Source: Candidatus Nealsonbacteria bacterium DGGOD1a (GTDB taxonomy: Bacteria; Patescibacteriota; Minisyncoccia; Minisyncoccales; UBA5738). Taken from it: DNA of 64,000 nucleotides. The DNA is taken from positions 753,931 to 817,930 of the forward strand of contig CP092821.1 in assembly GCA_022530585.1 (NCBI GenBank), read 5' to 3'. Both the position numbers and the translations under genes were made by a program. The notes under the pieces are model-generated. The model saw nothing but the letters and a program-made list of their open reading frames with translations, made no database searches and was not told where the DNA came from. Positions 1 to 54,911 of the stretch are shown piece after piece (positions within the stretch are counted from its first letter, which is position 1; each line of letters starts with the position of its first letter).

Positions 1-65
1 TCTCTCAATCTTTCGGGATTCCTTAATGTTGTTGTAATTGACCAAGGTTTTTTCATATTTTTAAC

Positions 66-1874
66 TTAACTGGCTATTTTACAATAAAAAACTCTTTCAG
101 TATGGCCGTTTGTTTCACTCTTTCCCGCTGTAAATGCTTTATAGTCTCGTTCAAAAATATCAACATCGCCACGGCTCTTTAATGTATTAATAATTTGCGT
201 ATCACTAATTCTTGCATTTGACCTTCCATCTTTTGATTCCCCTGTATTGTTGTATGAAACTAAAATATGCTTACAATTTGCGTTTCCAATTAGATCGGCG
301 AAAGAGCTGGCAGCTGATTTTAGGCAATAATTACTCTTTAGCTGGGCCCTGTCCATTTTTTTTGCTTTTCCAAAAACTGGCGGCTTTCCCCAGTTCGCAA
401 GATTTTCTAATAAATGGTAAGCATCGGCATATTGACGAGAATTATATGGCGGATCCAAATATAGAACATCGCAACTTAATTTTCTTATGAGCTGATTCGC
501 ATCTGTTTGGTAAATTTCATTATTTAAATTATTTTCAACTTTCAAATCTGGCATTAGGAGGCGTAATGGTTGAATCATGTCTAAATCCTTCCTGTAGGCA
601 TCGTAATGACCAACGGTATTCGCCACCTTATCTACCGCATATATTAGTGAAGTTATTAAAACTGTTTTTTCAACTTCATCTTTCGCAATTTCATCAATCT
701 TTTCGCGGATAACCCCTATTTTTTTCGCATTTTCCAAAGTAAAAAAAGTGTTTCCGAAATTTTCAGAAAAATAATTATCGTATCTTGTATCTAAATTATT
801 CAATAACGCTATTTTCTTAGCTATTTCTTCGCTATTCACCTCCGTGATTCCCAAGAAAGCTTTCAATGGAAGATAATTACTTGTGAGAAGGTCGTTTGAA
901 ATAACCTTGATGTTCTTTTTATTAAATCGATTTCCTACCACGCCCGTTCCGGCGAATATGTCACAAAAAGATTCAAATCCGTTACATTTCTCATTCACAA
1001 TATCCTCGATAAATCCGACTAATTTATATTTGTTGCCCAAAAATCTTCTATTCTGTAGCTGGAAAAAACCTGATTTAATGTCGTTATTATGCGAAAAATT
1101 ATTCTTCCGTTCTTTTTTAATAATATTCGGAGAATAGATCGGTTGATCGTTTTTCAATAAACTGAACAAGGAAATTTGGTTGCCATCGGAAATATAATTT
1201 ATTTCTGATACTTGGGAATCGCTTAGGAAACTATGGGTTTCGCTTTCGCTAATGACAATAAAATCAACAATATTAATACCCATGATCTGCCCGGCTTCTA
1301 ATATTTTATTCAAAACCTCGGAATCATGTTGGCTTGCGTTAACATCTCCTGATGGATGATTATGTATTAAAACAACTCCTGCCGCCCTTAACTCAATAGC
1401 GGGGCCAAATATTTCTCGAGGATGAATTAAACTTTTATCTAAAATACCGATAGATACGATTTCCTTTTTTAAAAGTACATTCCGAGCATTTAGATATAGA
1501 CATACTAGATGCTCCTTTTTCTTATCTCTTATATCAGCTACCAGAGCAACTGCCTCTCGCGCAGATTGAATAATGTTGTCTTTAGGATTTAACTCATCAA
1601 CGCAACGCTTTACTAATGCAACAGCTGAAACAATTTGTAAAGCTTTTGCTTTTCCGATTCCCGGAATTTCTAAAAGATCGGCAACGCTTATATTTAAAAA
1701 ATTTTTACCAAATTTCTTGATTATTTGCCCGGAAAGCTCCTTAACGTTTTTCCCTTTAATTCCGCTGCCAATCATGATAGCTAAAAGCTCACTCTTAGAA
1801 AGAGCATCTGACCCCCTTTCGAGGAATCTTTCTCTAGGTCGATCAATTTTTGGGATGTCCTTTAATTTTCCCAT
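66..1874 (-). CDS. RadC-like (HhH + JAB/MPN) domain fused to D12-class (Dam-like) N6-adenine DNA methyltransferase
   Basis: 602-aa ORF. The N-half has RadC hallmarks (KSELLAIMIGSG, helix-hairpin-helix IPGIGKAKA, JAB motif HNHPSG). The C-half has LGNKYKL, the SAM-binding motif FCDIFAGTGVVG and the catalytic LDPPYN (DPPY) motif of Dam-type m6A methyltransferases. Confidence 0.75.
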   Translation of the reverse strand: MGKLKDIPKIDRPRERFLERGSDALSKSELLAIMIGSGIKGKNVKELSGQIIKKFGKNFLNISVADLLEIPGIGKAKALQIVSAVALVKRCVDELNPKDNIIQSAREAVALVADIRDKKKEHLVCLYLNARNVLLKKEIVSIGILDKSLIHPREIFGPAIELRAAGVVLIHNHPSGDVNASQHDSEVLNKILEAGQIMGINIVDFIVISESETHSFLSDSQVSEINYISDGNQISLFSLLKNDQPIYSPNIIKKERKNNFSHNNDIKSGFFQLQNRRFLGNKYKLVGFIEDIVNEKCNGFESFCDIFAGTGVVGNRFNKKNIKVISNDLLTSNYLPLKAFLGITEVNSEEIAKKIALLNNLDTRYDNYFSENFGNTFFTLENAKKIGVIREKIDEIAKDEVEKTVLITSLIYAVDKVANTVGHYDAYRKDLDMIQPLRLLMPDLKVENNLNNEIYQTDANQLIRKLSCDVLYLDPPYNSRQYADAYHLLENLANWGKPPVFGKAKKMDRAQLKSNYCLKSAASSFADLIGNANCKHILVSYNNTGESKDGRSNARISDTQIINTLKSRGDVDIFERDYKAFTAGKSETNGHTERVFYCKIAS

Positions 1875-39190: not shown

Positions 39191-39238
39191 GCAAAAAACG
39201 GAAAGGCGATGTCCGCCTTTCCGTTTTTTCTTTTAAAA

Positions 39239-39706
39239 TTAAAACTTGAAATGTGCGAACGCTCGGTTTGCCTCGGCCATACGGTGCGTATCCTCTTTTT
39301 TCTTGATGGCCACGCCCGTGTTATTGGCCGCGCCGATCAGCTCCTCGGCCAATTTGATCTTCATCGGCTGGCCCTTCTTTTTGCGCGCCGATTCAAGCAG
39401 CCAGCGAACCGCCAGCGCCTGTCCCCTTTCCTTGACCACCGGTTTGGGCACTTGATAGGTCGCGCCGCCGACGCGCTGGGATTTAACTTCCAAAAGCGGG
39501 CGGGCGTTTTCCAAAGCCAAATTGAAAACTTCCAGCGGATCTTTCTGGGTTTTCTCTTTCATTATATCCAAAGCGCCGTAAACGATCTTCTTGGCCGCGT
39601 TCTTCTTGCCCTTTTTCATTATGTGATTAATGATCTGGGAAATTAAAACGCTGTTATAAATCGCGTCCGGAGCAATTTCTTTTTTTGTATTTTTCTTGCC
39701 GCTCAT
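39239..39706 (-). CDS. rpsG: 30S ribosomal protein S7
   Basis: 155 aa; [23 protein letters not shown] ... AHFKF. Confidence 0.9.
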
Positions 39707-39859
39707 AATAAGCTAAATTCGAAACACGAAGCTCGAAATCCGAAACAAATCCGAATGTTCAAAATTATAATGTTCAAAACGGGTATTGAATTCGTTTCGA
39801 AATTTGAAAATTCGTGCTTGTTTCGAGTTTCGATATTCGAGATTCGAAATTAGAAATTT
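39707..39859. repeat. family B palindromic element (rpsL-rpsG spacer)
   Basis: CTCGAAATCCGAAACAAATCCGAATGTTCAAAATTATAATGTTCAAAACGGG...GTGCTTGTTTCGAGTTTCGATATTCGAGATTCGAAAT. Confidence 0.85.
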
Positions 39860-40270
39860 TTACTTGCCCTTTTTGACTCCGTACTTGGAACGCTCCTGCT
39901 TGCGTTTTTCCACTCCGGTGCAATCAAGCTTGCCGCGCACGATATGGTAGCGCACGCCCGGCAAATCTTTCACGCGGCCGCCGCGAATCAAAACGATGGA
40001 ATGTTCTTGCAATTTGTGGCCTTCGCCCGGGATATAAGCCGTGACTTCCATGCCGTTGGTGAGCTTCACCCTGGCCACCTTGCGCAACGCCGAATTCGGT
40101 TTCTTGGGAGTCGAAGTAAACACTTTGGTGCAAATGCCGCGCTTCAAAGGCGAACTGTAATTCCGGCCCCGATTTTTCAAAGTGTTGAAACCAAACGCCA
40201 GCGCCGGCGATTTGGTTTTATGCACGCGCTTCGTCCTTTTGTGTTTTATCAGTTGATGAATGGTTGCCAT
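39860..40270 (-). CDS. rpsL: 30S ribosomal protein S12
   Basis: 136 aa; [12 protein letters not shown] ... [19 protein letters not shown]. Confidence 0.95.
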
Positions 40271-40659: not shown

Positions 40660-43600
40660 TTAAAGGCTTTCCCCGCTTTCGGAGACATCTTCGCTCCCTC
40701 CGACAGATTCGGATATTTCTTCTTCGGATACTTCTTCTCCAGATACTTCTTCTCCAGATACTTCTTCCGAAACTGTATCGTCCGCGGTTTCCTCCTCTTC
40801 CAACTCTTCGCCGTCCGCGGCGGGATCAATCGTTTCTTGCGCCGCTTCGCTTGCCGCATCGCTTTTGTCATTTTCGTCTTCCGCCGCGCCTTCCTCGTCA
40901 TCGGCGCTATCGGAAGACCCCGTGTTCTCGACAGAATCGCCAGCGGGCGCAGGATCGCCTTCGTTTGAAGATTGGCCATTGTTATTTTCCAAATTTCCGG
41001 CGGCGGAACCTGTCTCCGGCGATTCGCTTGATCCCGTATTTTGGGCCGGTTCGTCGCCGCAAGCCCCCTCGGTTTTTTCCCAAACGCCATTCTCGATCCA
41101 AGTGCAATAGACTTCTCCGGTCGCTTTATCCACCATTTCCAATTGCTCGACCCGCGCGGTCTTGGCGCTGAAAGTTTCCACCACCACCCTTCGCAAGCTG
41201 GCCGCGCCATCATAAATCGCCAGCCCCAAAGATTCCAAGATATTTCTCACCTTGGCCAGCAAACTGTTTTCGGATTCTTCCGCCGAATCAACAGTCGTGG
41301 TGGAATTTATCAACCCTTGTTCGGTCAACTGCAAACTTATATTGTCAATCCGCGATTGCTGGGCTTTGGCCACTTCCAACAGATAGGCGGTGAATTTGGG
41401 ATAATCAAGCGACAGATAGCCGCTGGCGTTTTGGCCGACAAGTTCGGGCATCACCGCCTGCACTTCCTGCGCGATCATACCGATCTCGCGCTGGGCACCA
41501 AGATTCTTGGCCGCGTCCAGAGAAGTGTCCCAGTTATAATAAATGCCGCGCAGTTTGCTCAAATTTCCGATCACATCCATCTCGTCGGCAATCGATCCGA
41601 TATTGATTTTCAGCCGGATATCCGACGATGAATTGGTCAATACGCCGTCGGCATCCGAATACACCGCGCGATTGCCCTCGCCGGCAAGCGTCCCAATCCC
41701 CACATTGCCGGCCCCGTCGATGCGCAGGCGTTCGGCAATCGCCGCCCCGCCCGTTCTGGTCCAGAAAGTCAATGCCGATGTTTCACTCCCCGATGTTGCC
41801 GTGGTCAAAAGATTGCCAATCCGGCCCGTGAGCTCATCCGTCCCCGCGCTGTCTTCGGCGTAAAAATTAATTAACCCGCCAATGCCGTCCGCCGCCGTGC
41901 CCGAAGTTTGCCGCCGCAAGCGCAAAACCTCCGCCACGGTATCGGTGGTAGCGGGATTGATGGACAGATACCCGGCAATGCCATTCGTGGAACCGCCGTA
42001 AACACCAAAGCTGTTCGTGGAATTGCCGTAAACGCCATAGCCATTCGTGGAACCGCCGTAAACACCAACATTGTTCGCGGAAAGGCCATAAATGCCATAG
42101 TTGTTCGTAGAACTGCCATAAATGCCATAGCTGTTCGTGGAATTGCCGTAAACGCCAAAGCTGTTCGTGGAACCGCCACGGACACCATAGCTGTTCGTGG
42201 AAAAGAAATTACCCGCGTAATAGGTTCTTCCCCGAATCACATAGCGCAGGCGAACATCGGTATTCGTCCAGCTGGCGCCGTCGGCAGAAGTCGCGCCCAT
42301 ATTTGACGACGCATCCGAATCCAAAATAATGTTCCCGCCCGTCGGCGCGGCGCTATATTTCAACACCAGCCAGTATTTTGTCCCGCTTACCATCGTGTAG
42401 CTCGTGCCCATCGACAAGATTTGATAACTTGTTGTGAGCGTGCCGAATTTAACGCTATTGCCTGTCGCCAGCGCGGCCCCGGTTGGTTTTGACGGCGAAC
42501 CGCCGTCATCGGCGTAAATGTAGCCGGTGAGAGTTGCCGTGGTATTGGTAATATCCGCGCTTTCCTTAACCCTGACGGTGAAATCACCCATTGTGTGCGC
42601 GTCGCTGGCGGTAAATTGCACCGCCTGATACATTGTCGCCATTGTCGCGTCCGTGCCGGTGAACGCCGAACCGTCCTGCAAATCAGACGCGGTTTGCGAC
42701 GCGTTAATCGACGGATAGGTTTCCTGATTAACCGTCTGCGCCGAATTGATATTCCCGGCCACATCCAACTTATACCCCGCCGCCGGACTCGTCGTGCCGA
42801 TGCCGACATTGCCGTTACCTAAAAGAGTCATTACCGTTGTTTGCCCAGTAAAAGGCGCAACACCTCCATCATGTACCCTAAATTGCATATTATTTGCCGC
42901 ACCTCCACCGCCCTGAAGACCGTTTGAATAGATTGAATTATAGCGAACATCGGAGTCCGATCTTCCCATACGAATCTGTTCAACTGTTTGGCCAATAGTT
43001 GTTGCCGCGCGTGAATATATAGTTCCTACTACATCAAGTTTCTGCACTGGACTCGTCGTCCCAATCCCGACATTGCCGGAAGAATCAATGCGCAGGCGTT
43101 CGTCCCAGCTTCCCGCGTTTCTTGTCGCGAATGCCAGCGCGCCGCTTTGCGCTCCATCCGCATGGCTCACGCCCACCAAATCAATGCCGGCAACGGTTTG
43201 CACCGCGCCGCTTAAATTCGCCTGCCCGAAAGCAAGACCGATGGTATTGTTGGCGGTGGTATCGGTATTCACGATCCCCAGCAAACTCGCGTCGCCGATA
43301 TCCGTGCTGGAATTTGCCCCGGCAACATTAAACTTGTAATTCGGCGTTGTCGTGCCGATGCCCAGGCGGCTGTTGGTATCATCCCAATACATTCCGTCAA
43401 ACGCGGTCCACGCGCCGGCGTTGTTGTAGAGCAGTTGGCCTTCCGCGCCCGAAGGCAGAGCGCCGCCCGCGGTAAGATTGACGCCGTTCCAAACCAAATT
43501 GCCCGAAACATTGTAGAGCCTGTCGACAATCGTTTCCGGCGCGGTGGTCTGCGCCAACCGCAACCGCCCGTTCACATCCAACAACTCCGCCGGCGTTGTC

Positions 43601-46600
43601 GTGCCGATGCCAATATTGCCTTTCAATATTGTTTTAGTGATTGAATCATTACCCAGCACTACGCTGTCAGAACCGGCTCCCGTAGCATTATAACCAATAA
43701 CAATTTCATTAGTATCGCCATCGGCCAACGCTTTAGTGTTTGTTCCCAAGTAAATTGAATAACCAGATGTTTTATTATTATCAGAACCATCGGAAATATA
43801 TCTGCCGGCATTATTGCCAAAAGCCGAATTATACGCGCCAGTAGTGTTGTTTAGCAAGGAGTTGGTTCCAAGCGCAGTATTATAATATCCCGAAGTATTA
43901 TAGCGAAGGGAATAGCGTCCGACGGCAATGTTATTATAACCGGTAGTATTATCCCTAAGAGAACTGCTTCCTATACCAACAAGAAAAGATGACTGATTAA
44001 CATTCGACGCGGTGCTCCCTGTCGTTAAATTACCGGCACCTGACCCCAAAAAAAGATTATCGCCGCTGGGCGTAACTATTCCATTATTGCCATACTCAAA
44101 ATTGTGCAAAAATATTGCACCGTTTTTGGTGATCATCCCGAACTGGTTGGTATTGGTAGTGTTATCCAAATCCAAATTCCCCGCGGCAACATCCAACTTG
44201 TCCCCCGGCGCGGTCGTGCCGATGCCCAGCCTGTTGGTGGCATTATCCCAATACATTCCATCAAACGCGGTCCACGCGCCGGCGTTGTTGTAGAGCAGTT
44301 GGCCTTCCGCGCCCGAAGGCAGGGCGCCGCCCGCGGTGAGATTAACCCCGTTCCAAACCAAATTGCCCGAAACATTGTAGAGCTTGTCGGTTGTCGTTGC
44401 CGGCGCGGTGGTTTGCGCCAAGCGCAGGCGCCCATTCACATCCAGCAACTCCGCCGGACTCGTCGTGCCGATGCCGACATTACCGGTGCTTCCGTCCATT
44501 CTTACAATTTCGCTTGTTATACCCGAATCACCCCCACCAAAAAATGCCAGTGATCCCTTTCCGCTCGCGCTAATATAATTCCTAATCGCCCCATAAGAAA
44601 AGCCATTAACAACTTTAAATAACAATTGATTATACTCACCTACATTATTAATATCGGATTCCAAAGTTAAAAGCGTTGTATCTGTTACGGCGGTATTATT
44701 AACATGTAGCGTTGATCCCGGCGTCGTCGTCCCAATGCCGACATTGCCGCCTAATGGTTGTAAGGCAATATCCCGAGTAGTATTACCGCTGGTGCGCGCT
44801 TGTATCCAATAAGGGTAAGGGCTGGCATTTAACAACCCCATGGCTAGTTCAGATCCCTCTGATCTAAATATAGTTCCAGCAGTCGCACCCCAAGTTAAAG
44901 AAGCAGCTGTAGTACTAGGAGCTGCCACATGAAGCGTTGCGGCAGGACTCGTGATCCCGATACCCACATTGCCCTGAATTATCATTGACCCTGCCCCCGG
45001 ATCAGTACCAACATAACCATTACCCAAAGAAAGACCACCCGTAGAATTTAATCGCAATTTCTCCGTCCTTGATGTGCTTCCCAAAGCTGTGGTTTCAAAA
45101 CCAATATATACCCCGTGAGCGCTGGTAGTAAATGATTCGGCGGCATAACCAAATATCCCTGCGTTATTAGCCAACGCTGTGCCATCCCAACCGCCCCAGC
45201 CAAAGAACCCCATTCTGTCCCCAGTGCTCAAAGCCAAAGGTTCTGAAACAGTACCTCCATAACGGCGGAAAAAAAATTGCGATCCAGCTGAGGCGATATT
45301 GCTGTATGTATCAACCCCGATTTGCGCGGTGGTACCATTATTAACTACATGAAGTTGACCTAACGGTTCCGTCGTGCCGATGCCCAGGCGCGAGTTGGTA
45401 TCATCCCAATACAAGCCGGAAAACGCGGTCCACGCGCCGGCGTTGTTGTAGAGCAGTTGGCCTTCCGCGCCCGAAGGCAAAGCGCCGCCCGCGGTAAGAT
45501 TGACGCCGTTCCAAACCAAATTGCCCGAAACATTGTAGAGCCTGTCGACAATCGTTTCCGGCGCGGTGGTCTGCGCCAACCGCAACCGCCCGTTCACATC
45601 CAACATTTCCGCCGGACTGGTCGTCCCAATGCCAACATTTCCGCTATTATCTATTCTTAACCTTTCACTCATTGAGCCATCAGTTTTCCCAGTCTTCAAC
45701 ATAAATACAGTTCCGCCACCAGACTCTCTTAATGAAGTTAGCTCGGAAGAACCGTAACCCGCACCAGTTGTGGCGCTGTTAGTAAATTTCAGAGTCGTGG
45801 CTGTATTCGCTGTTGCAAAGTTAGAACGCAACTGGAGAATAGTCGTTTCTGCACCCGCAGCACCTCTAACAACCTCAAGTGGGTTCCCCGGACTCGTCGT
45901 CCCGATGCCGACATTGCCGGCACTCGAAATTCGCATTGCTTCGGTGCTACTGGCCGAAAAAGAAAGGTCTCCATTAGACTGACGAGCGATTATTACATCA
46001 GCCAATGCTGACCCCGAACCAAGCTGTAATTGGCCAGTTAAAAGTTGCGCACCAGCAAAACCCCCCAGCGACGAAGTCTTTGCCGTTATAGCGCCCACCA
46101 CATTTATGCTCCCCGTAGCACCTGCAGCGAACCCGGTACCGACCTGCAATGTATACTCCGGACTCGTCGTACCAATACCTAGCCGGCTGTTGGTATCATC
46201 CCAATGCAGGCCGGAGAACGCGGTCCACGCGCCGGCGTTGTTGTAGAGCAGTTGGCCTTCCGCGCCCGAAGGCAGGGCGCCGCCCGCGGTGAGATTGACG
46301 CCGTTCCAAACCAAATTGCCCGAAACATTGTAGAGCTTGTCGGCAATCGTTTCCGGCGCGGTGGTCTGCGCCAACCGCAACCGCCCGTTCACATCCAGCA
46401 ACTCCGCCGGACTCGTCGTGCCGATGCCGACATTACCGAGATTATCTATGGTCATTCTTGTCGCAGCACTTTCACCGTTGTTTCGTGTGCCAAATTTCAA
46501 ACCAAAACTATAATCTCCATCTGTCGCGTTAACTTTGTATCCTCTAATATAAGGAGCGCCGTCCAAGAAAGACCCGCCGCTAGTATATTTTCCAGTAAAA

Positions 46601-49600
46601 GTAATCATCCCGCCAACACCAGCGGCGTAAGCCGTATCATCGCTCGCAACAATACTTGAACCGCTCGCGCCACTGGTCACCGTAGCGTGAGAATCAAGCC
46701 TACCAAGGGGTCCCGTCGTGCCAATGCCCACATTGCCGGTACTTGAAATTCTCATCCATTCTGTATTACCAGCATACAATTTAAAATCACCCGAAGCATA
46801 TGTGCTCCCAACTTGAAAACCATTAGAACCTATCCCCATAACGCCAGATGAATTTAAGTAGGCACCACCTCCCGTAGCATAAACAGCGGCAGAAGCCATA
46901 ATAGCTCCCACTACATCTAATTCACGTGTCGGTGCCGTCGTGCCGATGCCCACTCTTCCCGCGAAGGTGGAAGTGGCGCTGGCGTTAAATGTGCCGTTCA
47001 CATCCAGCGTGTATCCCGGCGCGGTCGTCCCGATACCTACATTGCCGGTGCTCGGGTCAAACACAATGCCCGCGGTTGAGGTGGCATTCCCGACACGGAA
47101 CCCTCCGTTCACATCCAGCGTGTATCCCGGCGCAATCGTCCCGATACCGACATTGCCCGTACTATCGATTCGTACTTGTTCCACCCCCTTAGGCAAGAAA
47201 CTTATATATCCGTCTGTTGCTGAACTATGTGTTTTAAGGCTCAATTTATTATAACCTTGCGCAGTCAATTCATTATTTACATCACTGCCAATATAAGTAT
47301 TTACTGTGTTGTAATACACTTTATTCGTACTACCCCCCACTCTAACATCTCCGACTACCTGTAAAGCTGTGACCGGCGTCGTCGTCCCGATACCCACTCT
47401 TCCCGCGAAGGTGGAAGTGGCACTGGCGTTAAATGTGCCGTTCACATCCAATGTGTATCCGGGACTGGTCGTGCCGATCCCCACATTGCCGGAACTGTCA
47501 ATGCGCACCTGTTCCGTATTGTTTGACACAAGAGAAAAATAACCATTCGCCGCAAGATTTCCAACTTTGAGATTTGTTAAAACACCGCTCCCAGAGTTTG
47601 TATAAACACTTCCCGTTGTTCTTATAGTCCCAGCGACATCCAACGCTTGGCTTGGCGTTGTCGTGCCGATGCCCAGCCGGCTGTTTTCGTCATCCCAATA
47701 CATTCCGTTAAACGCGGTCCACGCGCCGTTGTTGTTGTAGAGCAGTTGGCCTTCGGTACCGACGGGCAAAGTGCCGCCCGCGGTAAGATTGACGCCGTTC
47801 CAAACCAAATTGCCCGAAACATTGTAGAGCTTGTTGGCGATATCCGCGGGCGCGGTGGTCTGCGCCAAGCGCAACCGCCCGTTCACATCCAACAGCTCCG
47901 CCGGACTGGTTGTTCCAACCCCGAAATAACCGGCGGTAACATATGTATTTCCGGTTCCGTTGGGCGTAATGGCAATACCGCCATTTAAAACCGTGGTTGT
48001 AATGCTTGGCGTTGAAATTCCGTCCGATAAAATCACCGGCGAATTATCGGTAGTTCTAAATGTCTTTTCTCCCGTAAGAATAATATTGCCTTTAAGACGA
48101 ATCTGCCCCCCGCCGGACGGCGTCGGATTAAGTTCGATATCTCCGTCACCGGTAGTTTGTAAAATTAAATTTTGGTCGATATCGGCCGAAACCACAACAC
48201 TGTCGGCCAAATCGGTTTGCAATACTTTTTGCCCATCCACATAAATAGAGCCCGGTCCGACATATATGCTTTCCCAAAAATTTGTTGGGGAGCCAAGGGA
48301 ATAAGTGTCATCGGCCGACGGTACGATATTGCCTGATATAGCCATGTTTCCGGCAACATCAAGCTTTTCCGCCGGACTCGCTGTCCCGATGCCCACATTG
48401 CCGGTGCTCGGGTCAAACACAATGCCCGCGGTTGAAGTGGCATTGCCCGCCCGGAACCCGCCGTTCACATCCAAAGTGTATCCCGGGCTGGCCGTACTAA
48501 TGCCCACATTACCGCTACTATTTTGGATATATAACCTATCTGCCGCTCCAGCATAAAGGCTCAAATCTTTTGCCGCTGTAGTACCAACAGCTATGGCTGA
48601 CCCTGATGCCGAAAGAACATAATTTCCATTGACTCTATAATTAGAGGAGTTTGTTGTTCCACTAACATCAAGCGCATACCCCGGACTCGTCGTGCCGATA
48701 CCTAACCGGCTGTTGGTATCATCCCAATGCAGGCCGGAGAACGCGGTCCACGCGCCGGCGTTGTTGTAGAGCAGTTGGCCTTCCGCGCCCGAAGGCAGGG
48801 CGCCGCCCGCGGTGAGGTTAACGCCGTTCCATAAGAGGTTGCCCGAAACATTGTAGAGCTTGTCGGCAATCGTTTCCGGCGCGGTGGTCTGCGCCAACCG
48901 CAACCGCCCATTCACATCCAACAACTCCACCGGACTCGTCGTGCCAATCCCCACATTGCCGGCACTATTGATAGTTACACCTGAAGATAATGAACCCGCC
49001 GTCCCAAGGTACATTCTGTCATCAAGATTATAATAAAATATATTTCCTCTTGCTATGACATCTTTGTCACCAAATTGAATACCCGCAACACCAGCCGTCC
49101 CAGCGCTAGAACCTTCACCTGCAAGTATTGCAAATATAGAATTAGAATCAGCTGTAGCATTACTTTGGAATATACCAACTTGACTTCCAAGAGTCGGAAT
49201 AGTGCCTGAAGTTAAAACCGCATGGAATGGGCGTTGTGGCGCAGTTGTTCCAACACCAACATTGCCATTGTTCAAAACCACCAAGCCTGTTCCGGACGAA
49301 CCCCCGATCTGCGCGACGGTTGAGGTGGAAGTATCCGCCCCGACCACATGCAATCTCGAAGACGGGCTCGTCGTGCCGATGCCCACATTGCCAGTGCTAT
49401 CAATTCTCATTCCCTCCACCAAACTTCCAGAAGAATTGCCATAAGATAATTGGAGATAACCTGCCGGATTGCCGGATGTAGAGTTTTCCTTGCGGCCCGC
49501 AATCGCGCCGAAACCGGCCAGAGTAGTCCCAAAATAAGATCCACCCATAGTTAACGAACCGCCTTTATTGATACCCATGGCGCCGTTGGAAGTTAACAAC

Positions 49601-50217
49601 GCGGTTCCCCATGAATCGGTAACTTGGTTTTGGCCGTTAACATGCAACAGGCTTAGGGGTGCGCCCGGATAGCTGTTCGGCGCGGCCGTGCCGATACCCA
49701 CATTGCCGGAAGGATCAATGCGCAGGCGTTCGGCCCAGCTTCCCGCGTTCCTTGTTGAAAACGCCAGCGCGCCGCTTTGCGCTCCATCCGCATGGCTCAC
49801 GCCCACCAAATCAATGCCGGCGACGGTTTGCACCGCGCCGCTTAAATTCGCCTGCCCGAAAGCAAGGCCAATGGTATTGTTGGCGGTGGTATCGGTATTC
49901 ACGATCCCCAGCAAACTCGCGTCGCCCACATCCGTGCTGGAATTTGCCCCGGCAACATTAAACTTGTAATTCGGCGTCGTCGTCCCAATCCCCAGACGGC
50001 TGGTGGCATCGTCCCAATACATTCCGTCAAACGCGGTCCACGCGCCGGCGTTGTTGTAGAGCAGTTGACCCTCCGCGCCCGAAGGCAAAGCGCCGCCCGC
50101 GGTGAGATTAACGCCGTTCCAAACCAAATTGCCCGAAACATTGTAGAGCTTGTCGGCAATCGTTTCCGGCGCGGTGGTCTGCGCCAACCGCAACCGCCCG
50201 TTCACACGCCGTTCCAA
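40660..50217 (-). CDS. C-terminal 3,185-codon part of a giant tail-fibre-like surface protein (GNVGIGTT-repeat fibre, Hep_Hag-like stretch, S74 intramolecular chaperone domain, acidic tail)
   Basis: There is no ATG start: the first start-like codon is the TTG at 50217, inside the duplicated 95-bp segment. The ORF contains 7 copies of the ~95-aa module ...AELLDVNGRLRLAQTTAPETIADKLYNVSGNLVWNGVNLTAGGALPSGAEGQLLYNNAGAWTAF..WDD..SRLGIGTT.P. It ends with the SSDIRLKINIG...GMIAQEVQAVMPELV signature. Confidence 0.85.
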   Translation of the reverse strand: MERRVNGRLRLAQTTAPETIADKLYNVSGNLVWNGVNLTAGGALPSGAEGQLLYNNAGAWTAFDGMYWDDATSRLGIGTTTPNYKFNVAGANSSTDVGDASLLGIVNTDTTANNTIGLAFGQANLSGAVQTVAGIDLVGVSHADGAQSGALAFSTRNAGSWAERLRIDPSGNVGIGTAAPNSYPGAPLSLLHVNGQNQVTDSWGTALLTSNGAMGINKGGSLTMGGSYFGTTLAGFGAIAGRKENSTSGNPAGYLQLSYGNSSGSLVEGMRIDSTGNVGIGTTSPSSRLHVVGADTSTSTVAQIGGSSGTGLVVLNNGNVGVGTTAPQRPFHAVLTSGTIPTLGSQVGIFQSNATADSNSIFAILAGEGSSAGTAGVAGIQFGDKDVIARGNIFYYNLDDRMYLGTAGSLSSGVTINSAGNVGIGTTSPVELLDVNGRLRLAQTTAPETIADKLYNVSGNLLWNGVNLTAGGALPSGAEGQLLYNNAGAWTAFSGLHWDDTNSRLGIGTTSPGYALDVSGTTNSSNYRVNGNYVLSASGSAIAVGTTAAKDLSLYAGAADRLYIQNSSGNVGISTASPGYTLDVNGGFRAGNATSTAGIVFDPSTGNVGIGTASPAEKLDVAGNMAISGNIVPSADDTYSLGSPTNFWESIYVGPGSIYVDGQKVLQTDLADSVVVSADIDQNLILQTTGDGDIELNPTPSGGGQIRLKGNIILTGEKTFRTTDNSPVILSDGISTPSITTTVLNGGIAITPNGTGNTYVTAGYFGVGTTSPAELLDVNGRLRLAQTTAPADIANKLYNVSGNLVWNGVNLTAGGTLPVGTEGQLLYNNNGAWTAFNGMYWDDENSRLGIGTTTPSQALDVAGTIRTTGSVYTNSGSGVLTNLKVGNLAANGYFSLVSNNTEQVRIDSSGNVGIGTTSPGYTLDVNGTFNASATSTFAGRVGIGTTTPVTALQVVGDVRVGGSTNKVYYNTVNTYIGSDVNNELTAQGYNKLSLKTHSSATDGYISFLPKGVEQVRIDSTGNVGIGTIAPGYTLDVNGGFRVGNATSTAGIVFDPSTGNVGIGTTAPGYTLDVNGTFNASATSTFAGRVGIGTTAPTRELDVVGAIMASAAVYATGGGAYLNSSGVMGIGSNGFQVGSTYASGDFKLYAGNTEWMRISSTGNVGIGTTGPLGRLDSHATVTSGASGSSIVASDDTAYAAGVGGMITFTGKYTSGGSFLDGAPYIRGYKVNATDGDYSFGLKFGTRNNGESAATRMTIDNLGNVGIGTTSPAELLDVNGRLRLAQTTAPETIADKLYNVSGNLVWNGVNLTAGGALPSGAEGQLLYNNAGAWTAFSGLHWDDTNSRLGIGTTSPEYTLQVGTGFAAGATGSINVVGAITAKTSSLGGFAGAQLLTGQLQLGSGSALADVIIARQSNGDLSFSASSTEAMRISSAGNVGIGTTSPGNPLEVVRGAAGAETTILQLRSNFATANTATTLKFTNSATTGAGYGSSELTSLRESGGGTVFMLKTGKTDGSMSERLRIDNSGNVGIGTTSPAEMLDVNGRLRLAQTTAPETIVDRLYNVSGNLVWNGVNLTAGGALPSGAEGQLLYNNAGAWTAFSGLYWDDTNSRLGIGTTEPLGQLHVVNNGTTAQIGVDTYSNIASAGSQFFFRRYGGTVSEPLALSTGDRMGFFGWGGWDGTALANNAGIFGYAAESFTTSAHGVYIGFETTALGSTSRTEKLRLNSTGGLSLGNGYVGTDPGAGSMIIQGNVGIGITSPAATLHVAAPSTTAASLTWGATAGTIFRSEGSELAMGLLNASPYPYWIQARTSGNTTRDIALQPLGGNVGIGTTTPGSTLHVNNTAVTDTTLLTLESDINNVGEYNQLLFKVVNGFSYGAIRNYISASGKGSLAFFGGGDSGITSEIVRMDGSTGNVGIGTTSPAELLDVNGRLRLAQTTAPATTTDKLYNVSGNLVWNGVNLTAGGALPSGAEGQLLYNNAGAWTAFDGMYWDNATNRLGIGTTAPGDKLDVAAGNLDLDNTTNTNQFGMITKNGAIFLHNFEYGNNGIVTPSGDNLFLGSGAGNLTTGSTASNVNQSSFLVGIGSSSLRDNTTGYNNIAVGRYSLRYNTSGYYNTALGTNSLLNNTTGAYNSAFGNNAGRYISDGSDNNKTSGYSIYLGTNTKALADGDTNEIVIGYNATGAGSDSVVLGNDSITKTILKGNIGIGTTTPAELLDVNGRLRLAQTTAPETIVDRLYNVSGNLVWNGVNLTAGGALPSGAEGQLLYNNAGAWTAFDGMYWDDTNSRLGIGTTTPNYKFNVAGANSSTDIGDASLLGIVNTDTTANNTIGLAFGQANLSGAVQTVAGIDLVGVSHADGAQSGALAFATRNAGSWDERLRIDSSGNVGIGTTSPVQKLDVVGTIYSRAATTIGQTVEQIRMGRSDSDVRYNSIYSNGLQGGGGAANNMQFRVHDGGVAPFTGQTTVMTLLGNGNVGIGTTSPAAGYKLDVAGNINSAQTVNQETYPSINASQTASDLQDGSAFTGTDATMATMYQAVQFTASDAHTMGDFTVRVKESADITNTTATLTGYIYADDGGSPSKPTGAALATGNSVKFGTLTTSYQILSMGTSYTMVSGTKYWLVLKYSAAPTGGNIILDSDASSNMGATSADGASWTNTDVRLRYVIRGRTYYAGNFFSTNSYGVRGGSTNSFGVYGNSTNSYGIYGSSTNNYGIYGLSANNVGVYGGSTNGYGVYGNSTNSFGVYGGSTNGIAGYLSINPATTDTVAEVLRLRRQTSGTAADGIGGLINFYAEDSAGTDELTGRIGNLLTTATSGSETSALTFWTRTGGAAIAERLRIDGAGNVGIGTLAGEGNRAVYSDADGVLTNSSSDIRLKINIGSIADEMDVIGNLSKLRGIYYNWDTSLDAAKNLGAQREIGMIAQEVQAVMPELVGQNASGYLSLDYPKFTAYLLEVAKAQQSRIDNISLQLTEQGLINSTTTVDSAEESENSLLAKVRNILESLGLAIYDGAASLRRVVVETFSAKTARVEQLEMVDKATGEVYCTWIENGVWEKTEGACGDEPAQNTGSSESPETGSAAGNLENNNGQSSNEGDPAPAGDSVENTGSSDSADDEEGAAEDENDKSDAASEAAQETIDPAADGEELEEEETADDTVSEEVSGEEVSGEEVSEEEISESVGGSEDVSESGESL
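41329..41628 (-). other. peptidase-S74 / intramolecular-chaperone auto-cleavage domain coding region
   Basis: SSDIRLKINIGSIADEMDVIGNLSKLRGIYYNWDTSLDAAKNLGAQREIGMIAQEVQAVMPELVGQNASGYLSLDYPKFTAYLLEVAKAQQSRI. This matches the S-D-x-R-x-K ... G-x-I-A-Q-E-V ... P-E-L-V pattern of endosialidase and tail-spike C-terminal chaperones. Confidence 0.8.
41978..42207 (-). repeat. ~9.5 tandem 24-bp units encoding the octapeptide repeat (S/N)STN(S/G/N)(Y/F)GVYG
   Basis: Protein: STNSYGVRGGSTNSFGVYGNSTNSYGIYGSSTNNYGIYGLSANNVGVYGGSTNGYGVYGNSTNSFGVYGGSTNG. The plus-strand DNA unit is GTTCGTGGAA..GCCGTAAACGCC.AAGCT. Confidence 0.85.
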
Positions 50218-50300
50218 ACCAAATTGCCCGAAACATTGTAGAGCTTGTCGGCAATCGTTTCCGGCGCGGTGGTCTGCGCCAACCGCAACCGCCCGTTCAC
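50111..50300 (-). repeat. perfect 95-bp tandem duplication (50111-50205 = 50206-50300) at the junction of the two giant ORFs
   Basis: Both copies read ACGCCGTTCCAAACCAAATTGCCCGAAACATTGTAGAGCTTGTCGGCAATCGTTTCCGGCGCGGTGGTCTGCGCCAACCGCAACCGCCCGTTCAC. AC dinucleotide microhomology lies at the boundaries. Confidence 0.95.
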
Positions 50301-53300
50301 ATCCAACAGCTCCGCCGGACTCGTCGTGCCGATGCCCACATTGCCGGTGCTATCAACACGCACCCGTTCATTGCCGGCGGTGCTTAAAGTAATATAGCCA
50401 TCAGTATGGGTTGCCGCATTGCCAGATGACAGAGTTAAAGGATAGGCACCGGTGGCGGTGGCAGAACCAAAGCTATATTTAGCTCTATTAAAATTGGTCA
50501 TATAAACCCCCCTGTTCGTTCCGCTCATCACCAGATCATTAGTTACTATATAAGCATTAGAACTTATCGTACCAGCAACATCTAATTTCACAGAAGGCGC
50601 CGTCGTGCCGATGCCGACATTGCCGGTGCTTGGGTCAAACACAATGCCCGCGGTTGAAGTGGCGTTCCCGACGCGAAACCCGCCGTTCACATCCAGCGTG
50701 TATCCCGGACTCGTCGTGCCGATGCCGACATTGCCGGCACTATTAATTCTCATACGCTCAGCATTGCCTGCCGCAACACCTATCGTTGGCGTAGTGACAA
50801 AAGAAATCAAAGTCGGAGCTGGAAGCGACCCACCCACCGTACCACCAAAATAAAGTTCATCTCTTGACGCATCGCGACTATCAGCGGATAAAACGGAAAT
50901 ATTGTAAGTATTGTCATAAGAAGGAATTGCAATACGCCCAAGTTTTCTAACATTTGCCGATAAAGTAGTCGTATTCAAATCCGCCCCAATTAAAATGCCA
51001 CCGGTAGCGCTTCCAGATTGCAAAGTAGTAATACCAAGCACATTTAACTTTGAAGAGGGTTCCGTCGTCCCGATGCCCACATTGCCGGTGCTCGGGTCAA
51101 ACACAATGCCCGCGGTTGAAGTGGCGTTCCCGACGCGGAAACCGCCGTTCACATCCAGCGCATACCCGGGACTGGTCGTGCCAATGCCCAGGCGCGAGTT
51201 GGTATCATCCCAATACATTCCGGAGAACGCGGTCCACGCGCCATTGTTGTTGTAGAGCAGTTGGCCTTCCGCGCCCGAAGGCAGGGCGCCGCCCGCGGTG
51301 AGATTCACGCCGTTCCAAACCAAATTGCCCGAAACATTATAGAGCTTGTCGGCAATCGTTTCCGGCGCGGTGGTCTGCGCCAACCGCAACCGCCCGTTCA
51401 CATCCAGCAACTCCGCCGGACTCGTCGTCCCGATCCCGACATTGCCGGAATTTGATACGATAAATTTCACGGCATTGGCCGAATTATCCAATCTGAAAAT
51501 GCTTTTGGCGACCGCCATCGCGGCGCCGGCGTTATCGTTTGAAAAAACAGAATCCACCGTTAACGACGAATTGCTTGCTATCGAAACAACGGTTTTGGTT
51601 TCTCCACCAACGGTAATGTTGTCTCCGATACCAACTTGCGTTGTAAAATATGAACTCGTTCCGGCAACAATAGCGGAGCCCGCGCTGGTCGCCACCGTTC
51701 CGGAAGCGTTAAAACCGGCGGGAGCTTTAGCCGTCAATCTTGATAATTTTGTTGAAATCCCCCCAATGCCGATACTGCCGTCATCGCCAATAAATAATCT
51801 GGAAGTATTTGCGGTTGATCCGCTTGGAGTGGTGTAAATATTATACGAAGTTCCATGGCCGGCGGCAGTCCAATCTTCAGTAGTTTTGGCAATGGCAAAC
51901 GCGCCCCGGCCGTAAGCGGAACCATCCCAGCCGTAGAAATTATGATAACCCAGCTCCGCGCCGGTAAGCGCCGCGCCATCTATATCGCTTGGGTTCCCTC
52001 GTTTATATGTGTTAAGACCATTGGCATAATTACTCTGCGTCCAAAAATATAAATTGAGATATCCGTTGGAATTTTTTGATCCGAATTTTCCTCTGGAAGC
52101 GACTTGAAGCTCGCCGCCGCTCGTGATCTTGAATCTTTCGTTGTCTTCGCCGTCGTCAGCCACAAACAAATCCGCGCTGTCAAAATAAGCGGTCAGGCCG
52201 GAAGCGGTTTCCCCCAAATATCTGCCGGAAATATAAAGATGGGTATCGTCGGTAATTGAAGCAACTCCGAATGTTTCCGTCCCGATTTTAATCGCGTCCC
52301 CTTCCTCCAATTCGCTGGTGAACAATGTTCCGGTTCCCGTCACCAACGCTTGCCCGGTCCCTATCGCCACCGTGCCGGTAAGAGTGGAAAATGATTTTCC
52401 CTTAAGGTTGAGAATCGTCTTCGGACTGCTCGTGCCAATCCCCACATTGCCGGCGAAATAGCCATTGCCGTCGCGGTCAACGAAAAACTTCTGAACTCCG
52501 GCGACGCCAACGCCCAAAAGCGGCGCGCCGGCAATGGCGCTGGAAGGATTTATCAAAACGCTGGATTGGGCAAAATCGGTCGACAGCGGCTGGTAAGTGA
52601 ACACCGCCTGCCCCGAAGTTGACATTCCGGAAGTGTTGATGTTGGCGACATAGATATCGTTGAAGCGGTGCGCGGCGTCGCCCAAACTCGCGCCCAAATC
52701 GGTTGCCGGAGAAATATCCCCTGAAGATGATATTCCGGCCAGCACCGCTTTGCCGTCGGAATCAATCGAAGACACCACATTACCCCCCGAATCCGCGATC
52801 TGGAATTGGTAGGTGCCGGCGTCATCGCCAAGAACCACCCGGGCGCCGCCGCCGGTGGTGAGTTTCAAAAGATTCGCGGTTTCATTGTCGATCGATTCCG
52901 CGCCGGCGCCGAAATTCAGCCGGCCGCCGGAAACCGTGATGTCGCCGGACAACCGGATGTCGCCGGTCGCGTCAACCGCGTATGTCCCATCGGCCAGTTT
53001 GGCCGCGGTGGCGCCGTTCACCGCGTATAATGCTTGCGTCCCATCGGCGATATCCACCGTGGTCGTGCCGTCGGTAATTTGAGTTTTTCCGCCCGCGCCG
53101 GCTTGCAAAATTAAATCTTTGCTCGCGCCCGTGGTAATCCGGCCGGCATCGACAAACGACAGTTGGCCGCTTTCCAAAGTCGTGGACGCCACATCCAGCT
53201 TGCCCGCGGCGTAGATGTCATACCATCTTTGAGACGAGCTTCCCAAATCATAACCCAATGTTGAATCAACGAACGGAACGATGCTGGCGGCGTTGTCCGT

Positions 53301-54707
53301 ATCGCCCACCACCAGATTGCCGGTGCCGTTGGGCGCGAAAACCAGATTGCCGTTGTCGGTGGTGTAGAATGTGCCGCCGCTCGTCAAAGTGATGTCGCCG
53401 TCCAATACCAGATTGCCGGTTGAATCAATATAGTTGGTATCGGTATGAAATTGCACCGCGCCCGTGCCGTTGGGATTGACGAGCAAATTCGTGTCGGCAT
53501 CGCGGGTGGAAATGGTGGAAGACTTGATGGCGATGTTGTCGGCTTGCAAAGCAACCCCCGATCCGCCTTGGATCACGGACAATACCGCGGCCGTGGTGGT
53601 CGCCGAAAAAGCCGCCGCGCCCGAATAGGTCTGGCTGCCGGACACCGTGAAATTGCCGCGCACGACCGCGTCGCCGCCGGCGCTAACCGTGAAATTGCCG
53701 CTCCCGATATCCAGCGAACCGCCGGTGATCGCGCCATGGCGGTTCACCGTGAAACTGCCGCCGCCGATATCCAAAGTGTTGGCGCCCAAATTATCCGGCG
53801 GATTGTAACTCTGTCCCAGCGAATAATTGGGCCGGTCCGAATCCATCTGGCGCAGAATTTGATTAACTCGCGCTTTGGTGCCCTCATCGGCGACAACGGT
53901 ATTGACTTGAGTTTGTATTTCTTTGGTATGAATGGTTTGAATCTCCTTGGTTTGCACTTCCTTAGTCTGTATTTCTTTTTCCGGATAAATGTTTTGGACG
54001 ATTGGCGCCGGCTGATTTTCAGAGGGTCTAACCCTCTGATCATCTTCCAAAAATTCTTGATCGTTGGAAATTTGGCCATTCATCGACAATTGATCATTGC
54101 CCGGAGAATCTTCTATTCCCAGCCAGCGGCGCGCCGTGTCGCGAATATGGTTTTTGATTCCGTCGAAAAATGAGGACAACGACGCTTGCCCCGCCTGCGC
54201 CAAATTTTTAGTGGAATAAAGCCCGTTTTGCAAAGATCCGGCCGCGGCGCTTCCGGCCGCGGAAACTCCGCTTCCGGTCGAATGAACGCCGCGCGCCAAA
54301 GACCGCGCCGCGGTTTCGCCCAACCCCGCGGTTTGTTTGGCCGAATTTTCAACAAGGCCGCCCGCGGCAACGGCAACGGCGGTCGCGTTATTTTCTGTTT
54401 TTACCGCGAAATTTTGAGCAAAATCAACCGCGGCTGATTTCGCGTCCGAAACAAACTCCAGCGCGGCGGGAAACACCTCGTTTTCAACCGCGGCAATTCC
54501 TTGGACAAACTGGCGCGGCGCCATTTGCGCGGCATCCCGGAAAAAATCGGCAAAACCAAAAGCGCGGTCCCGCAAGGAATCGGACGGATAAAATTCAACC
54601 GCGGCCCAAACGATTTGATACGCGCCCGCGCAACACAAAAATACCAAAAATGCGAACGCAATTTTCGTGAAAATTTGCGGTTTTTGATTATTTGGCTTTC
54701 TCTCCAT
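50202..54707 (-). CDS. N-terminal 1,501-codon part of the giant tail-fibre-like surface protein (signal-anchor, Ala/Ser-rich linker, KEIQT repeats, beta-helix-like segments, GNVGIGTT repeats)
   Basis: ATG at 54707. MERKPNNQKPQ plus a hydrophobic helix IFTKIAFAFLVFLCCAGAYQIVWAAV. It ends inside a conserved module (...LYNVSGNLVWNGV*) only because of the 95-bp duplication. Confidence 0.85.
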   Translation of the reverse strand: MERKPNNQKPQIFTKIAFAFLVFLCCAGAYQIVWAAVEFYPSDSLRDRAFGFADFFRDAAQMAPRQFVQGIAAVENEVFPAALEFVSDAKSAAVDFAQNFAVKTENNATAVAVAAGGLVENSAKQTAGLGETAARSLARGVHSTGSGVSAAGSAAAGSLQNGLYSTKNLAQAGQASLSSFFDGIKNHIRDTARRWLGIEDSPGNDQLSMNGQISNDQEFLEDDQRVRPSENQPAPIVQNIYPEKEIQTKEVQTKEIQTIHTKEIQTQVNTVVADEGTKARVNQILRQMDSDRPNYSLGQSYNPPDNLGANTLDIGGGSFTVNRHGAITGGSLDIGSGNFTVSAGGDAVVRGNFTVSGSQTYSGAAAFSATTTAAVLSVIQGGSGVALQADNIAIKSSTISTRDADTNLLVNPNGTGAVQFHTDTNYIDSTGNLVLDGDITLTSGGTFYTTDNGNLVFAPNGTGNLVVGDTDNAASIVPFVDSTLGYDLGSSSQRWYDIYAAGKLDVASTTLESGQLSFVDAGRITTGASKDLILQAGAGGKTQITDGTTTVDIADGTQALYAVNGATAAKLADGTYAVDATGDIRLSGDITVSGGRLNFGAGAESIDNETANLLKLTTGGGARVVLGDDAGTYQFQIADSGGNVVSSIDSDGKAVLAGISSSGDISPATDLGASLGDAAHRFNDIYVANINTSGMSTSGQAVFTYQPLSTDFAQSSVLINPSSAIAGAPLLGVGVAGVQKFFVDRDGNGYFAGNVGIGTSSPKTILNLKGKSFSTLTGTVAIGTGQALVTGTGTLFTSELEEGDAIKIGTETFGVASITDDTHLYISGRYLGETASGLTAYFDSADLFVADDGEDNERFKITSGGELQVASRGKFGSKNSNGYLNLYFWTQSNYANGLNTYKRGNPSDIDGAALTGAELGYHNFYGWDGSAYGRGAFAIAKTTEDWTAAGHGTSYNIYTTPSGSTANTSRLFIGDDGSIGIGGISTKLSRLTAKAPAGFNASGTVATSAGSAIVAGTSSYFTTQVGIGDNITVGGETKTVVSIASNSSLTVDSVFSNDNAGAAMAVAKSIFRLDNSANAVKFIVSNSGNVGIGTTSPAELLDVNGRLRLAQTTAPETIADKLYNVSGNLVWNGVNLTAGGALPSGAEGQLLYNNNGAWTAFSGMYWDDTNSRLGIGTTSPGYALDVNGGFRVGNATSTAGIVFDPSTGNVGIGTTEPSSKLNVLGITTLQSGSATGGILIGADLNTTTLSANVRKLGRIAIPSYDNTYNISVLSADSRDASRDELYFGGTVGGSLPAPTLISFVTTPTIGVAAGNAERMRINSAGNVGIGTTSPGYTLDVNGGFRVGNATSTAGIVFDPSTGNVGIGTTAPSVKLDVAGTISSNAYIVTNDLVMSGTNRGVYMTNFNRAKYSFGSATATGAYPLTLSSGNAATHTDGYITLSTAGNERVRVDSTGNVGIGTTSPAELLDVNGRLRLAQTTAPETIADKLYNVSGNLVWNGV

Positions 54708-54872: not shown

Positions 54873-54911
54873 AAAAGGGTCCGACCCTTTTTAAAAGGGT
54901 CGGACCCTTTT
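54873..54911. terminator. 39-nt perfect palindrome; a bidirectional terminator-like hairpin between the M50 protease gene and the giant gene
   Basis: AAAAGGGTCCGACCCTTTT-T-AAAAGGGTCGGACCCTTTT; 40 nt downstream of the M50 stop. Confidence 0.55.

Follow-up and report, generated by a model that had tools for sequence, protein, structure and literature searches.

The locus described here raises the question of whether a perfect 95-bp tandem duplication, which separates two large open reading frames (ORFs) of Candidatus Nealsonbacteria bacterium DGGOD1a, is a biological feature of this bacterium or a product of genome finishing. The window, that is, the whole 64,000-nt stretch of DNA that was analysed, and the two ORFs of 1,501 and 3,185 aa belong to the 1,159,797-bp record CP092821.1, which is the closed metagenome-assembled genome (MAG) of this bacterium. 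We consider, with a probability of about 93%, that the duplication is a genome-finishing artefact in which a k-1 overlap between contigs was left untrimmed.

The two copies of the 95-nt unit (50111..50205 and 50206..50300, both unstranded) are equal at 95 of 95 bases by direct comparison, and TRF gave a period of 95, 2.0 copies, 100% matches and a score of 382, which bears out the two identical copies described in an earlier note on this sequence. The unit runs from ACGCCGTTCC at its start to CCCGTTCAC at its end, and the copy-to-copy junction reads ...GCCCGTTCAC directly followed by ACGCCGTTCC... or, in an alternative extent, ...CAACCGCCCGTTCAC directly followed by ACGCCGTTCCAAACC.... Identity between the copies continues for one base rightward (to 50301) and for none leftward, with a junction ambiguity of 1 nt (A). 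The AC microhomology previously proposed for the boundaries is not located at the junction; the unit just begins and ends with AC. Because the junction ambiguity is only 1 nt, AC was rejected as a mark of a biological duplication. A scan of the 64-kb window identified no perfect 95-nt tandem repeat besides 50111-50300, and TRF found no short-unit repeat tract at the duplication site, where only 2.0 copies of the 95-nt unit are present. A perfect repeat of 95 bp is far beyond chance, yet it is no evidence of biology, and one of the two copies is surplus.

Both ORFs lie on the minus strand and match deposited proteins exactly. The N-terminal part (50202..54707, 1,501 aa, ATG start) is UMX47582.1 (L7H18_04000), annotated as 'hypothetical protein', and the C-terminal part (40660..50217, 3,185 aa, TTG start) is UMX47581.1, annotated as 'tail fiber domain-containing protein'. 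These two records are the products of a split: 95 nt equals 2 modulo 3, so that the additional copy shifts the frame and the annotation cut one gene into two. The whole gene (40660..54707, minus strand) spans 14,048 nt, and the removal of one copy leaves 13,953 nt, corresponding to 4,650 codons plus a stop in one frame. The one-copy fusion of the two ORFs has zero internal stops, and the same frame is found as a gene call at JGI. The frame arithmetic of the earlier note, according to which deleting one copy joins both ORFs in frame, was therefore correct, as was the read-through protein that it gave: across the site the fused product reads ...AELLDVNGRLRLAQTTAPETIADKLYNVSGNLVWNGVNLTAGG..., and the module core LDVNGRLRLAQTTAP is present in eight modules. 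The true gene is almost certainly a single intact ORF of 4,650 codons.

What the earlier note had missed is that the 95-mer is present a third time, again perfect, at 46298-46392; three more modules hold it with 93-94 of 95 matches. Between the paralogous module at 46298..46397 (unstranded) and the 50111 module, the maximal exact match is 100 nt long. This match starts at 50111, with an offset of 0 from the first base of the duplicated unit, and the base preceding it differs between the two places (g at 46297, a at 50110). Three exact repeat pairs of at least 95 nt occur in the window, including the 46298/50111 modules. Since an exact stretch of 100 nt is common to two of the eight near-identical modules, a graph with k = 96 must break at the 50111 95-mer. 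The duplicated unit is thus placed at a branching vertex, namely the edge of an exact repeat that measures k-1 nt or more and is found elsewhere too, as is characteristic of an untrimmed overlap.

A simulated k = 96 graph of the one-copy sequence was split into 13 unitigs, linked by 12 overlaps that each measure 95 nt, in which one unitig stops at 50205 and the next begins at 50111. Copy 1 equals the last 95 nt of the unitig that ends at the branch point, and copy 2 equals the first 95 nt of the following one. An untrimmed join of these two unitigs, at one of the 12 overlaps, regenerated the 64,000-nt window exactly. For a duplication placed at random in the 13,953-nt gene, the chance of touching any of the 12 boundaries is roughly 2e-3, an estimate that counts a start or an end at a boundary and does not yet demand the exact length of 95. 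From this repeat geometry a k of 95/96 was predicted ahead of finding the published value.

According to the published description, CP092821.1 (1.16 Mb) was refined with ABySS v1.3.7 using a 'k-mer of 96', the ABySS contigs were mapped onto contigs that already existed, and a perl script from Tang et al. 2012 was used for resolving gaps (PMC10190668). Supplementary Text S4 describes a 5-contig MAG in which gaps were closed with ABySS contigs (bioRxiv 10.1101/2022.04.20.488981). The authors polished the finished genome and validated it by read mapping (PMC10190668; bioRxiv 10.1101/2022.04.20.488981), and the polishing as described was SNP editing, with the genome set to the clonal majority at a 90% cut-off (bioRxiv 10.1101/2022.04.20.488981). 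The account of the joining step stays general. The genome's depth is reported as 278x and 113x, and the reads are Illumina reads of about 150 nt and PacBio reads of about 7 kb. The unit length of 95 is k-1 of the documented finishing assembler, and the comparison of assembler k and overlap length with 95, proposed in the earlier note as a check, is positive (ABySS at k = 96 gives an overlap of 95 nt). A SPAdes-type graph with K = 95 was also considered as the source and would produce the same geometry, but the documented finisher is ABySS with k = 96.

These records suggest how the duplication might have arisen. ABySS contigs (k = 96) were placed over the 5-contig draft and the gaps were closed semi-manually. 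Neighbouring contigs in a k = 96 de Bruijn graph have their terminal 95 nt (k-1) in common, and the graph breaks at any 95-mer that has two different neighbours. If a contig ending in R[1..95] were joined to a contig starting with R[1..95] and the overlap kept, the product would be x-R[1..95]-R[1..100]-y. ABySS cannot output junction k-mers that are missing from the reads, so the error must come from a later joining step. The join was presumably made by hand or by a script without trimming, and reads spanning the junction are probably missing.

The other three assemblies that derive from this culture line all carry one copy (3/3): JGI 3300028916 Ga0310376_1000018 (494,774 bp), JARDUI010000018.1 and JGI 3300028923 Ga0310375_1000029. 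In each of them a single 96-nt stretch aligns to both copies of the window. The first of these contigs, in which the gene is called at 4,650 aa, differs from the window by 7 mismatches over 34,667 nt apart from the 95-nt duplication, and its protein differs from the fused window protein at 1 residue. The junction 40-mer was absent from 12 of 12 loci compared, and of the 8 proteins clustered at 90% identity, the two from CP092821.1 are the only ones with a terminus at the duplication. Scans of genome and metagenome contigs gave 0 matches for the two-copy junction and likewise 0 for a one-copy 132-nt pattern; these zero matches carry no weight because the metagenome scan misses the JGI 3300028916 contig, a known one-copy carrier. 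Low-k short-read assemblers may collapse genuine tandem duplications, and the single copy in the sister assemblies is therefore strong rather than absolute evidence. Together with the k-1 length and the branch point, the sister assemblies strongly support an uncollapsed overlap in a repeat, which was the first of three explanations offered in the earlier note.

Its second explanation, an inactivating duplication, gains no support from the three one-copy assemblies. Such a real and recent tandem duplication, fixed or dominant in the population, would inactivate the gene, of which an N-terminal fragment of 1,501 aa that lacks the chaperone domain would be left. It would account for the deposited sequence, in which the duplication is present, and for the perfect identity of the copies, which would suit a very recent event; that the authors mapped reads onto the finished genome also speaks for it. 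We nevertheless regard it as very improbable, because the three one-copy assemblies from the same culture line are otherwise virtually identical, because biology has no reason to respect either a length of k-1 or a start at a branch point, and because neither ORF has decayed apart from the frameshift. As regards the read mapping, it might have exposed an unsupported 95-nt insertion, which is a counterpoint to an artefact; the polishing described was SNP editing, and reads can be placed in either copy, both of which soften this point.

The third explanation was a reversible ON/OFF switch, in which one-copy (ON) and two-copy (OFF) alleles would interconvert by slippage or recombination and finishing would have caught the OFF state. 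Phase variation typically acts on genes for surface fibres and adhesins, a perfect tandem duplication is an unstable structure, and assemblies of the same culture line do differ at this site, all of which would fit a switch. The phase-variable tracts that are known, however, consist of short repeated units or of segments that invert, and a single 95-nt duplication in a module core is unlike them; neither a hypermutable short-unit tract nor an invertible segment was found here. Among the assemblies and deposited proteins compared, the two-copy form occurs only in one hand-finished record and no copy-number heterogeneity or coexistence of states was seen, only the CP092821.1 proteins being broken at the duplication, so that the switch found no support either. 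Because the authors edited to the clonal majority at 90%, a minority allele would be unexpected in the final sequence, and the coincidences of k-1 length and branch point weigh equally against a switch. It is accordingly highly improbable in our view, and we would hardly expect that a two-copy subpopulation exists in the benzene-degrading culture, that a switch reversibly silences the largest surface fibre of a CPR epibiont living attached to an archaeon and that the k-1 coincidence is accidental. Taken together, a real duplication and a switch have only a slim chance of being correct.

The gene is a known assembly trouble spot. Wherever the assemblies differ inside it, they do so in the repeated modules, and in two of the sister assemblies it contains N gaps. 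A cluster of 7 substitutions (48817..48838, unstranded), the sole differences from the JGI 494,774-bp contig over the 34,667 nt other than the duplication, lies within another copy of the same module core and is unique to the closed genome. The site might have been misassembled in another way, as a module-level chimera or with another number of modules instead of a simple one-copy collapse. The conflicts among the four assemblies at many repeated-module positions, the N gaps in two of them and the 7-nt cluster point in this direction, but the one-copy frame agrees in length with the independent 4,650-aa gene and is 1 residue apart from it, and we consider such a misassembly unlikely. Such an error would bear on particulars of the gene, and it does not make the duplication a biological feature after all.

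The encoded protein is of an ordinary kind, though very large: a surface protein that resembles tail fibres and carries a Peptidase_S74 chaperone domain at its C-terminus. Its N-terminus, as read from the translation, is basic and then hydrophobic (MERKPNNQKPQIFTKIAFAFLVFLCCAGAYQIVWAA; 54597..54707, minus strand) and is probably a signal peptide or membrane anchor. The Peptidase_S74 intramolecular chaperone domain (41437..41625, minus strand) covers aa 2865-2927 of the 3,185-aa ORF, begins at SSDIRLK and matches PF13884 with E = 4.8e-12 and 46.4 bits (cut-off 22) over profile positions 1-57 of 58. It can be aligned with 6f45_A, a phage long tail fiber chain, and with MYRF 7dc3_A, and the S-D-x-R-x-K motif at its N-terminal edge reads ...TNSSSDIRLK... 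against ...LNVSSDRRIK... in 6f45_A. In the Peptidase_S74 family, S-D-x-R-x-K is a cleavage motif that is conserved and contains a serine. TRF identified, just upstream of the chaperone domain, a 30-nt tandem array of 7.3 copies (41984..42202, minus strand; repeat family D5) that encodes decapeptides of the NSYGVYGxST type. PHROG tail-fibre families match along the repeat region, and NCBIfam contains no family for the 1,501-aa or the 3,185-aa ORF. From these sequence features, the 4,650-aa product is predicted to be a secreted or anchored modular fibre ending in a self-cleaving Peptidase_S74 trimerisation chaperone.

Almost certainly, neither a pseudogene nor a switch exists at this locus, so the duplication has no biological import. 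The public 'complete' CP092821.1 appears to carry a 95-nt finishing error that splits its largest gene. DGGOD1a is a Methanothrix epibiont (bioRxiv 10.1101/2022.04.20.488981), and an anchored 4,650-aa fibre with a trimerisation chaperone, both features being predicted, is an obvious candidate for host attachment. Text searches of the main text of bioRxiv 10.1101/2022.04.20.488981 found no mention of such a protein, and neither these gene lengths nor Peptidase_S74 were found in its supplementary tables. For analyses of attachment, the intact 4,650-aa model is preferable, e.g., that of JGI Ga0310376_1000018. The locus also suggests a rule for screening: a perfect internal tandem repeat of length k-1, beginning where a dispersed exact repeat has its boundary, may be presumed to be an untrimmed overlap until reads show otherwise.

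Compared with known systems, the duplication is closest to uncollapsed k-1 overlaps between de Bruijn graph contigs, a class of error to which the terminal k-mer repeat on circular contigs also belongs: it is a perfect direct repeat as long as the vertex overlap (95 = 96-1). It has in common with the class of untrimmed overlaps that it lies where an exact repeat within the gene gives rise to a branching vertex, that it is absent from independent assemblies and that it can be reproduced in silico. Different from the terminal repeats of circular contigs, it is internal to a 'closed', polished genome and away from contig ends, and it must stem from semi-manual gap closure and not from the assembler proper. 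With phase-variable contingency loci it shares a frameshifting repeat in a large surface-protein gene, the OFF state of which would be truncated; this likeness is a resemblance only, as no heterogeneity was seen among the assemblies, a short-unit tract is lacking, and length and position are set by assembler parameters.

The protein itself shares PF13884, the SSDxRxK motif, PHROG tail-fibre matches and the match to the 6f45 chaperone with phage tail fibre and endosialidase-type proteins. Unlike the genes for these, its gene is chromosomal, located directly upstream of rpsL-rpsG-fusA, and has no adjacent phage genes. Genomes of Patescibacteria annotate such chaperone-bearing proteins as 'tail fiber domain-containing protein'. 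In contrast to phage fibre proteins, the protein described here is 4,650 aa long, with an N-terminal region that would act as a signal or anchor, eight modules of ~100 aa, and a chaperone region that is followed by an acidic tail of ~120 aa.

The giant tail-fibre-like gene (window 40660..54707, minus strand) is split by a perfect tandem duplication, as an earlier note had claimed, with 50111-50205 and 50206-50300 identical at 95 of 95 bases. Tandem Repeats Finder gave period 95, 2.0 copies, 100% matches and a score of 382 at this site (50111-50300), the only period-95 repeat in the 64-kb window. Two ORFs lie on the minus strand, both identified by exact-sequence look-up as CP092821.1 proteins: an N-terminal ORF of 1,501 aa with an ATG start (50202..54707; UMX47582.1, L7H18_04000, "hypothetical protein") and a C-terminal ORF of 3,185 aa with a TTG start (40660..50217; UMX47581.1, "tail fiber domain-containing protein"). 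Once one copy is deleted, the remaining 13,953 nt hold 4,650 codons and a terminal stop, uninterrupted by any other stop, in agreement with the note's description and arithmetic; the fused protein reads through the junction as in the other modules, and the module core LDVNGRLRLAQTTAP is present in eight modules. The "AC microhomology" that the note had placed at the boundaries was not recovered: identity of the two copies extends one base rightward (50301) and none leftward, which corresponds to a junction ambiguity of 1 nt.

A third perfect copy of the 95-mer, previously overlooked, lies at 46298-46392, and near-copies were identified at 51307 (94/95) and at 43481 and 45503 (93/95 each), all within paralogous modules of the giant gene. 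Alignment of the modules in register shows that the 46298 module and the one-copy 50111 module share a maximal exact match of 100 nt; it begins exactly at 50111, the base before it being g in the former (46297) and a in the latter (50110), and stops 5 nt past the 95-nt unit, at ATCCA. On this geometry, the deposited sequence reads x-R[1..95]-R[1..100]-y, R being the 100-nt shared stretch. Such a form would arise if a de Bruijn contig ending at the branching 95-mer were butted untrimmed to the next contig, and the prediction made beforehand from the geometry was k = 95 for a SPAdes-type graph or k = 96 for an ABySS-type graph.

Neighboring ABySS contigs overlap by k-1 bases, which is reproduced by the k = 96 graph built here. 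The ABySS k-mer used in finishing was 96 (PMC10190668), giving a 95-nt contig overlap, and the comparison of k-mer and overlap length with 95 proposed in the earlier note therefore agrees. CP092821.1 is a closed MAG of 1.16 Mb (1,159,797 bp) from Candidatus Nealsonbacteria bacterium DGGOD1a (PMC10190668). It started from five contigs, with ABySS contigs used for gap closure, and was polished by read mapping with SNPs edited to the clonal majority (bioRxiv 10.1101/2022.04.20.488981, Supplementary Text S4); in the gap closure of Tang et al. 2012, whose perl script was used for CP092821.1 (PMC10190668), overlapping contigs are sought by BLAST and then merged manually in Geneious (PMC3528712). The authors' report that read mapping validated the finished genome favors a real, fixed tandem duplication, a reading that we consider very improbable, although it can be argued that SNP-level polishing would leave a 95-nt insertion in place, with reads placeable in either copy.

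For the window reduced to one copy, the node-centric k = 96 graph contains 13 unitigs and 12 junctions, and every overlap is 95 nt. A unitig ending at 50205 is followed by one starting at 50111; when the other eleven overlaps are trimmed and the 50205/50111 join is left untrimmed, every base of the 64,000-nt window is reproduced. Three exact repeat pairs of at least 95 nt exist in the one-copy window, all within the giant gene, and the chance that a random duplication in the 13,953-nt gene starts or ends at such a boundary is about 2e-3, before any demand that its length be exactly 95.

Three further assemblies of the culture line OR / DGG-B span the site, all with one copy. In Ga0310376_1000018 (JGI 3300028916; 494,774 bp; loci L007 and L001), the gene call is 4,650 aa long, and the contig differs from the one-copy window at 7 positions in 34,667 nt. 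The others are GenBank JARDUI010000018.1 (DGG-1A metagenome; L008) and Ga0310375_1000029 (JGI 3300028923; L012), a DGG0 hybrid Illumina and PacBio assembly in which the gene call is 3,920 aa because of an N gap elsewhere in the giant gene. The copy-to-copy junction 40-mer was found in none of the 12 fetched comparison loci, and in the protein cluster at 90% identity no members other than the two CP092821.1 proteins have an end or a start at the duplication. Four public-collection scans returned no matches and are uninformative, the metagenome scan also missing Ga0310376_1000018, which is known to carry the 132-nt one-copy pattern. Low-k graphs can collapse tandem duplications, and one copy in short-read assemblies falls short of absolute proof of an artefact, but PacBio reads were used in one of the one-copy assemblies. 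A reversible ON/OFF switch at this site is about as improbable as a real, fixed duplication.

The k-1 length, the start at a branch point, the exact simulation and the single copy in three sister assemblies favor an assembly artefact, one of three explanations offered in the earlier note, with a probability of about 0.93 as judged at the assembly level. Our verdict is that the duplication is not biological and represents nothing novel. The useful product is a correction of the public genome record, together with a reusable diagnostic, namely a perfect tandem repeat whose length equals k-1 and whose start coincides with the edge of a dispersed exact repeat.

The whole giant gene is an assembly trouble spot. 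N runs occur inside it in two sister assemblies (L008 18387-18468, approximately window 47023-47104; L012 4076-5944, approximately window 52574-54442), and all base differences within the gene among the four assemblies fall in repeated modules, with disagreement, for example, at window 46297, 51306, 51339 and 49927-50089. At 48817-48838, directly after a 111-nt exact repeat (48706-48816), the closed genome alone carries seven clustered substitutions (gene sense ...GGCAACCTCTTATGG...; V to L at residue 1927), where the three other assemblies carry the module consensus ...GGCAATTTGGTTTGG...; this cluster may be genuine strain variation or else another place where repeats were misresolved. The flanking genes have 99.4-100% DNA matches in L002-L004 and L010 (ENA "hydrocarbon metagenome" PRJNA183510; k141 assemblies), which indicates that other hydrocarbon-degrading cultures or samples also contain this Nealsonbacteria strain or a sister of it.

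The giant gene is flanked by a site-2 protease gene on one side and by rpsL-rpsG-fusA-tuf on the other; it shares its strand with the ribosomal operon and lies directly upstream of rpsL, rpsG and fusA (minus strand, window 36949-40270 and 40660-54707). In the JGI contig, tuf and the S10 operon come next after rpsL, rpsG and fusA. Such ribosomal-gene surroundings are unusual for a 14-kb surface-protein gene, and no phage genes were identified in the neighborhood examined. The palindromic 20-mer AAAAGGGTCCGACCCTTTTT occurs in two tandem copies (54873-54911) that closely follow the site-2 protease (M50) gene and precede the start of the giant gene, probably an intrinsic terminator.

With the error removed, the giant gene encodes a 4,650-aa protein. 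Judging from its sequence, the N-terminus, basic and then hydrophobic, is a probable signal peptide or membrane anchor. The protein contains 25 GNVGIGT-type motifs, a module of approximately 100 aa present eight times and a decapeptide repeat array encoded by 30-nt repeats (41984-42202), with matches to PHROG tail-fibre families along the repeat region. PF13884 scored 46.4 bits (cut-off 22), identifying a Peptidase_S74 intramolecular chaperone domain, whose SSDIRLK motif aligns with the chaperones of a phage long tail fibre (6f45) and MYRF (7dc3). Past the chaperone region, the C-terminal ~110 aa form a strongly acidic, Glu/Asp/Ser-rich tail (window 40660-41000), which includes a 15-nt repeat encoding (S)GEEV (window 40712-40767). 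The protein may plausibly serve as an attachment fibre in this epibiont of Methanothrix. Its kind is already known, and NCBI uses the name "tail fiber domain-containing protein" for it. Phage fibres normally carry the chaperone at or near the C-terminus; the giant protein extends beyond it into the acidic tail.
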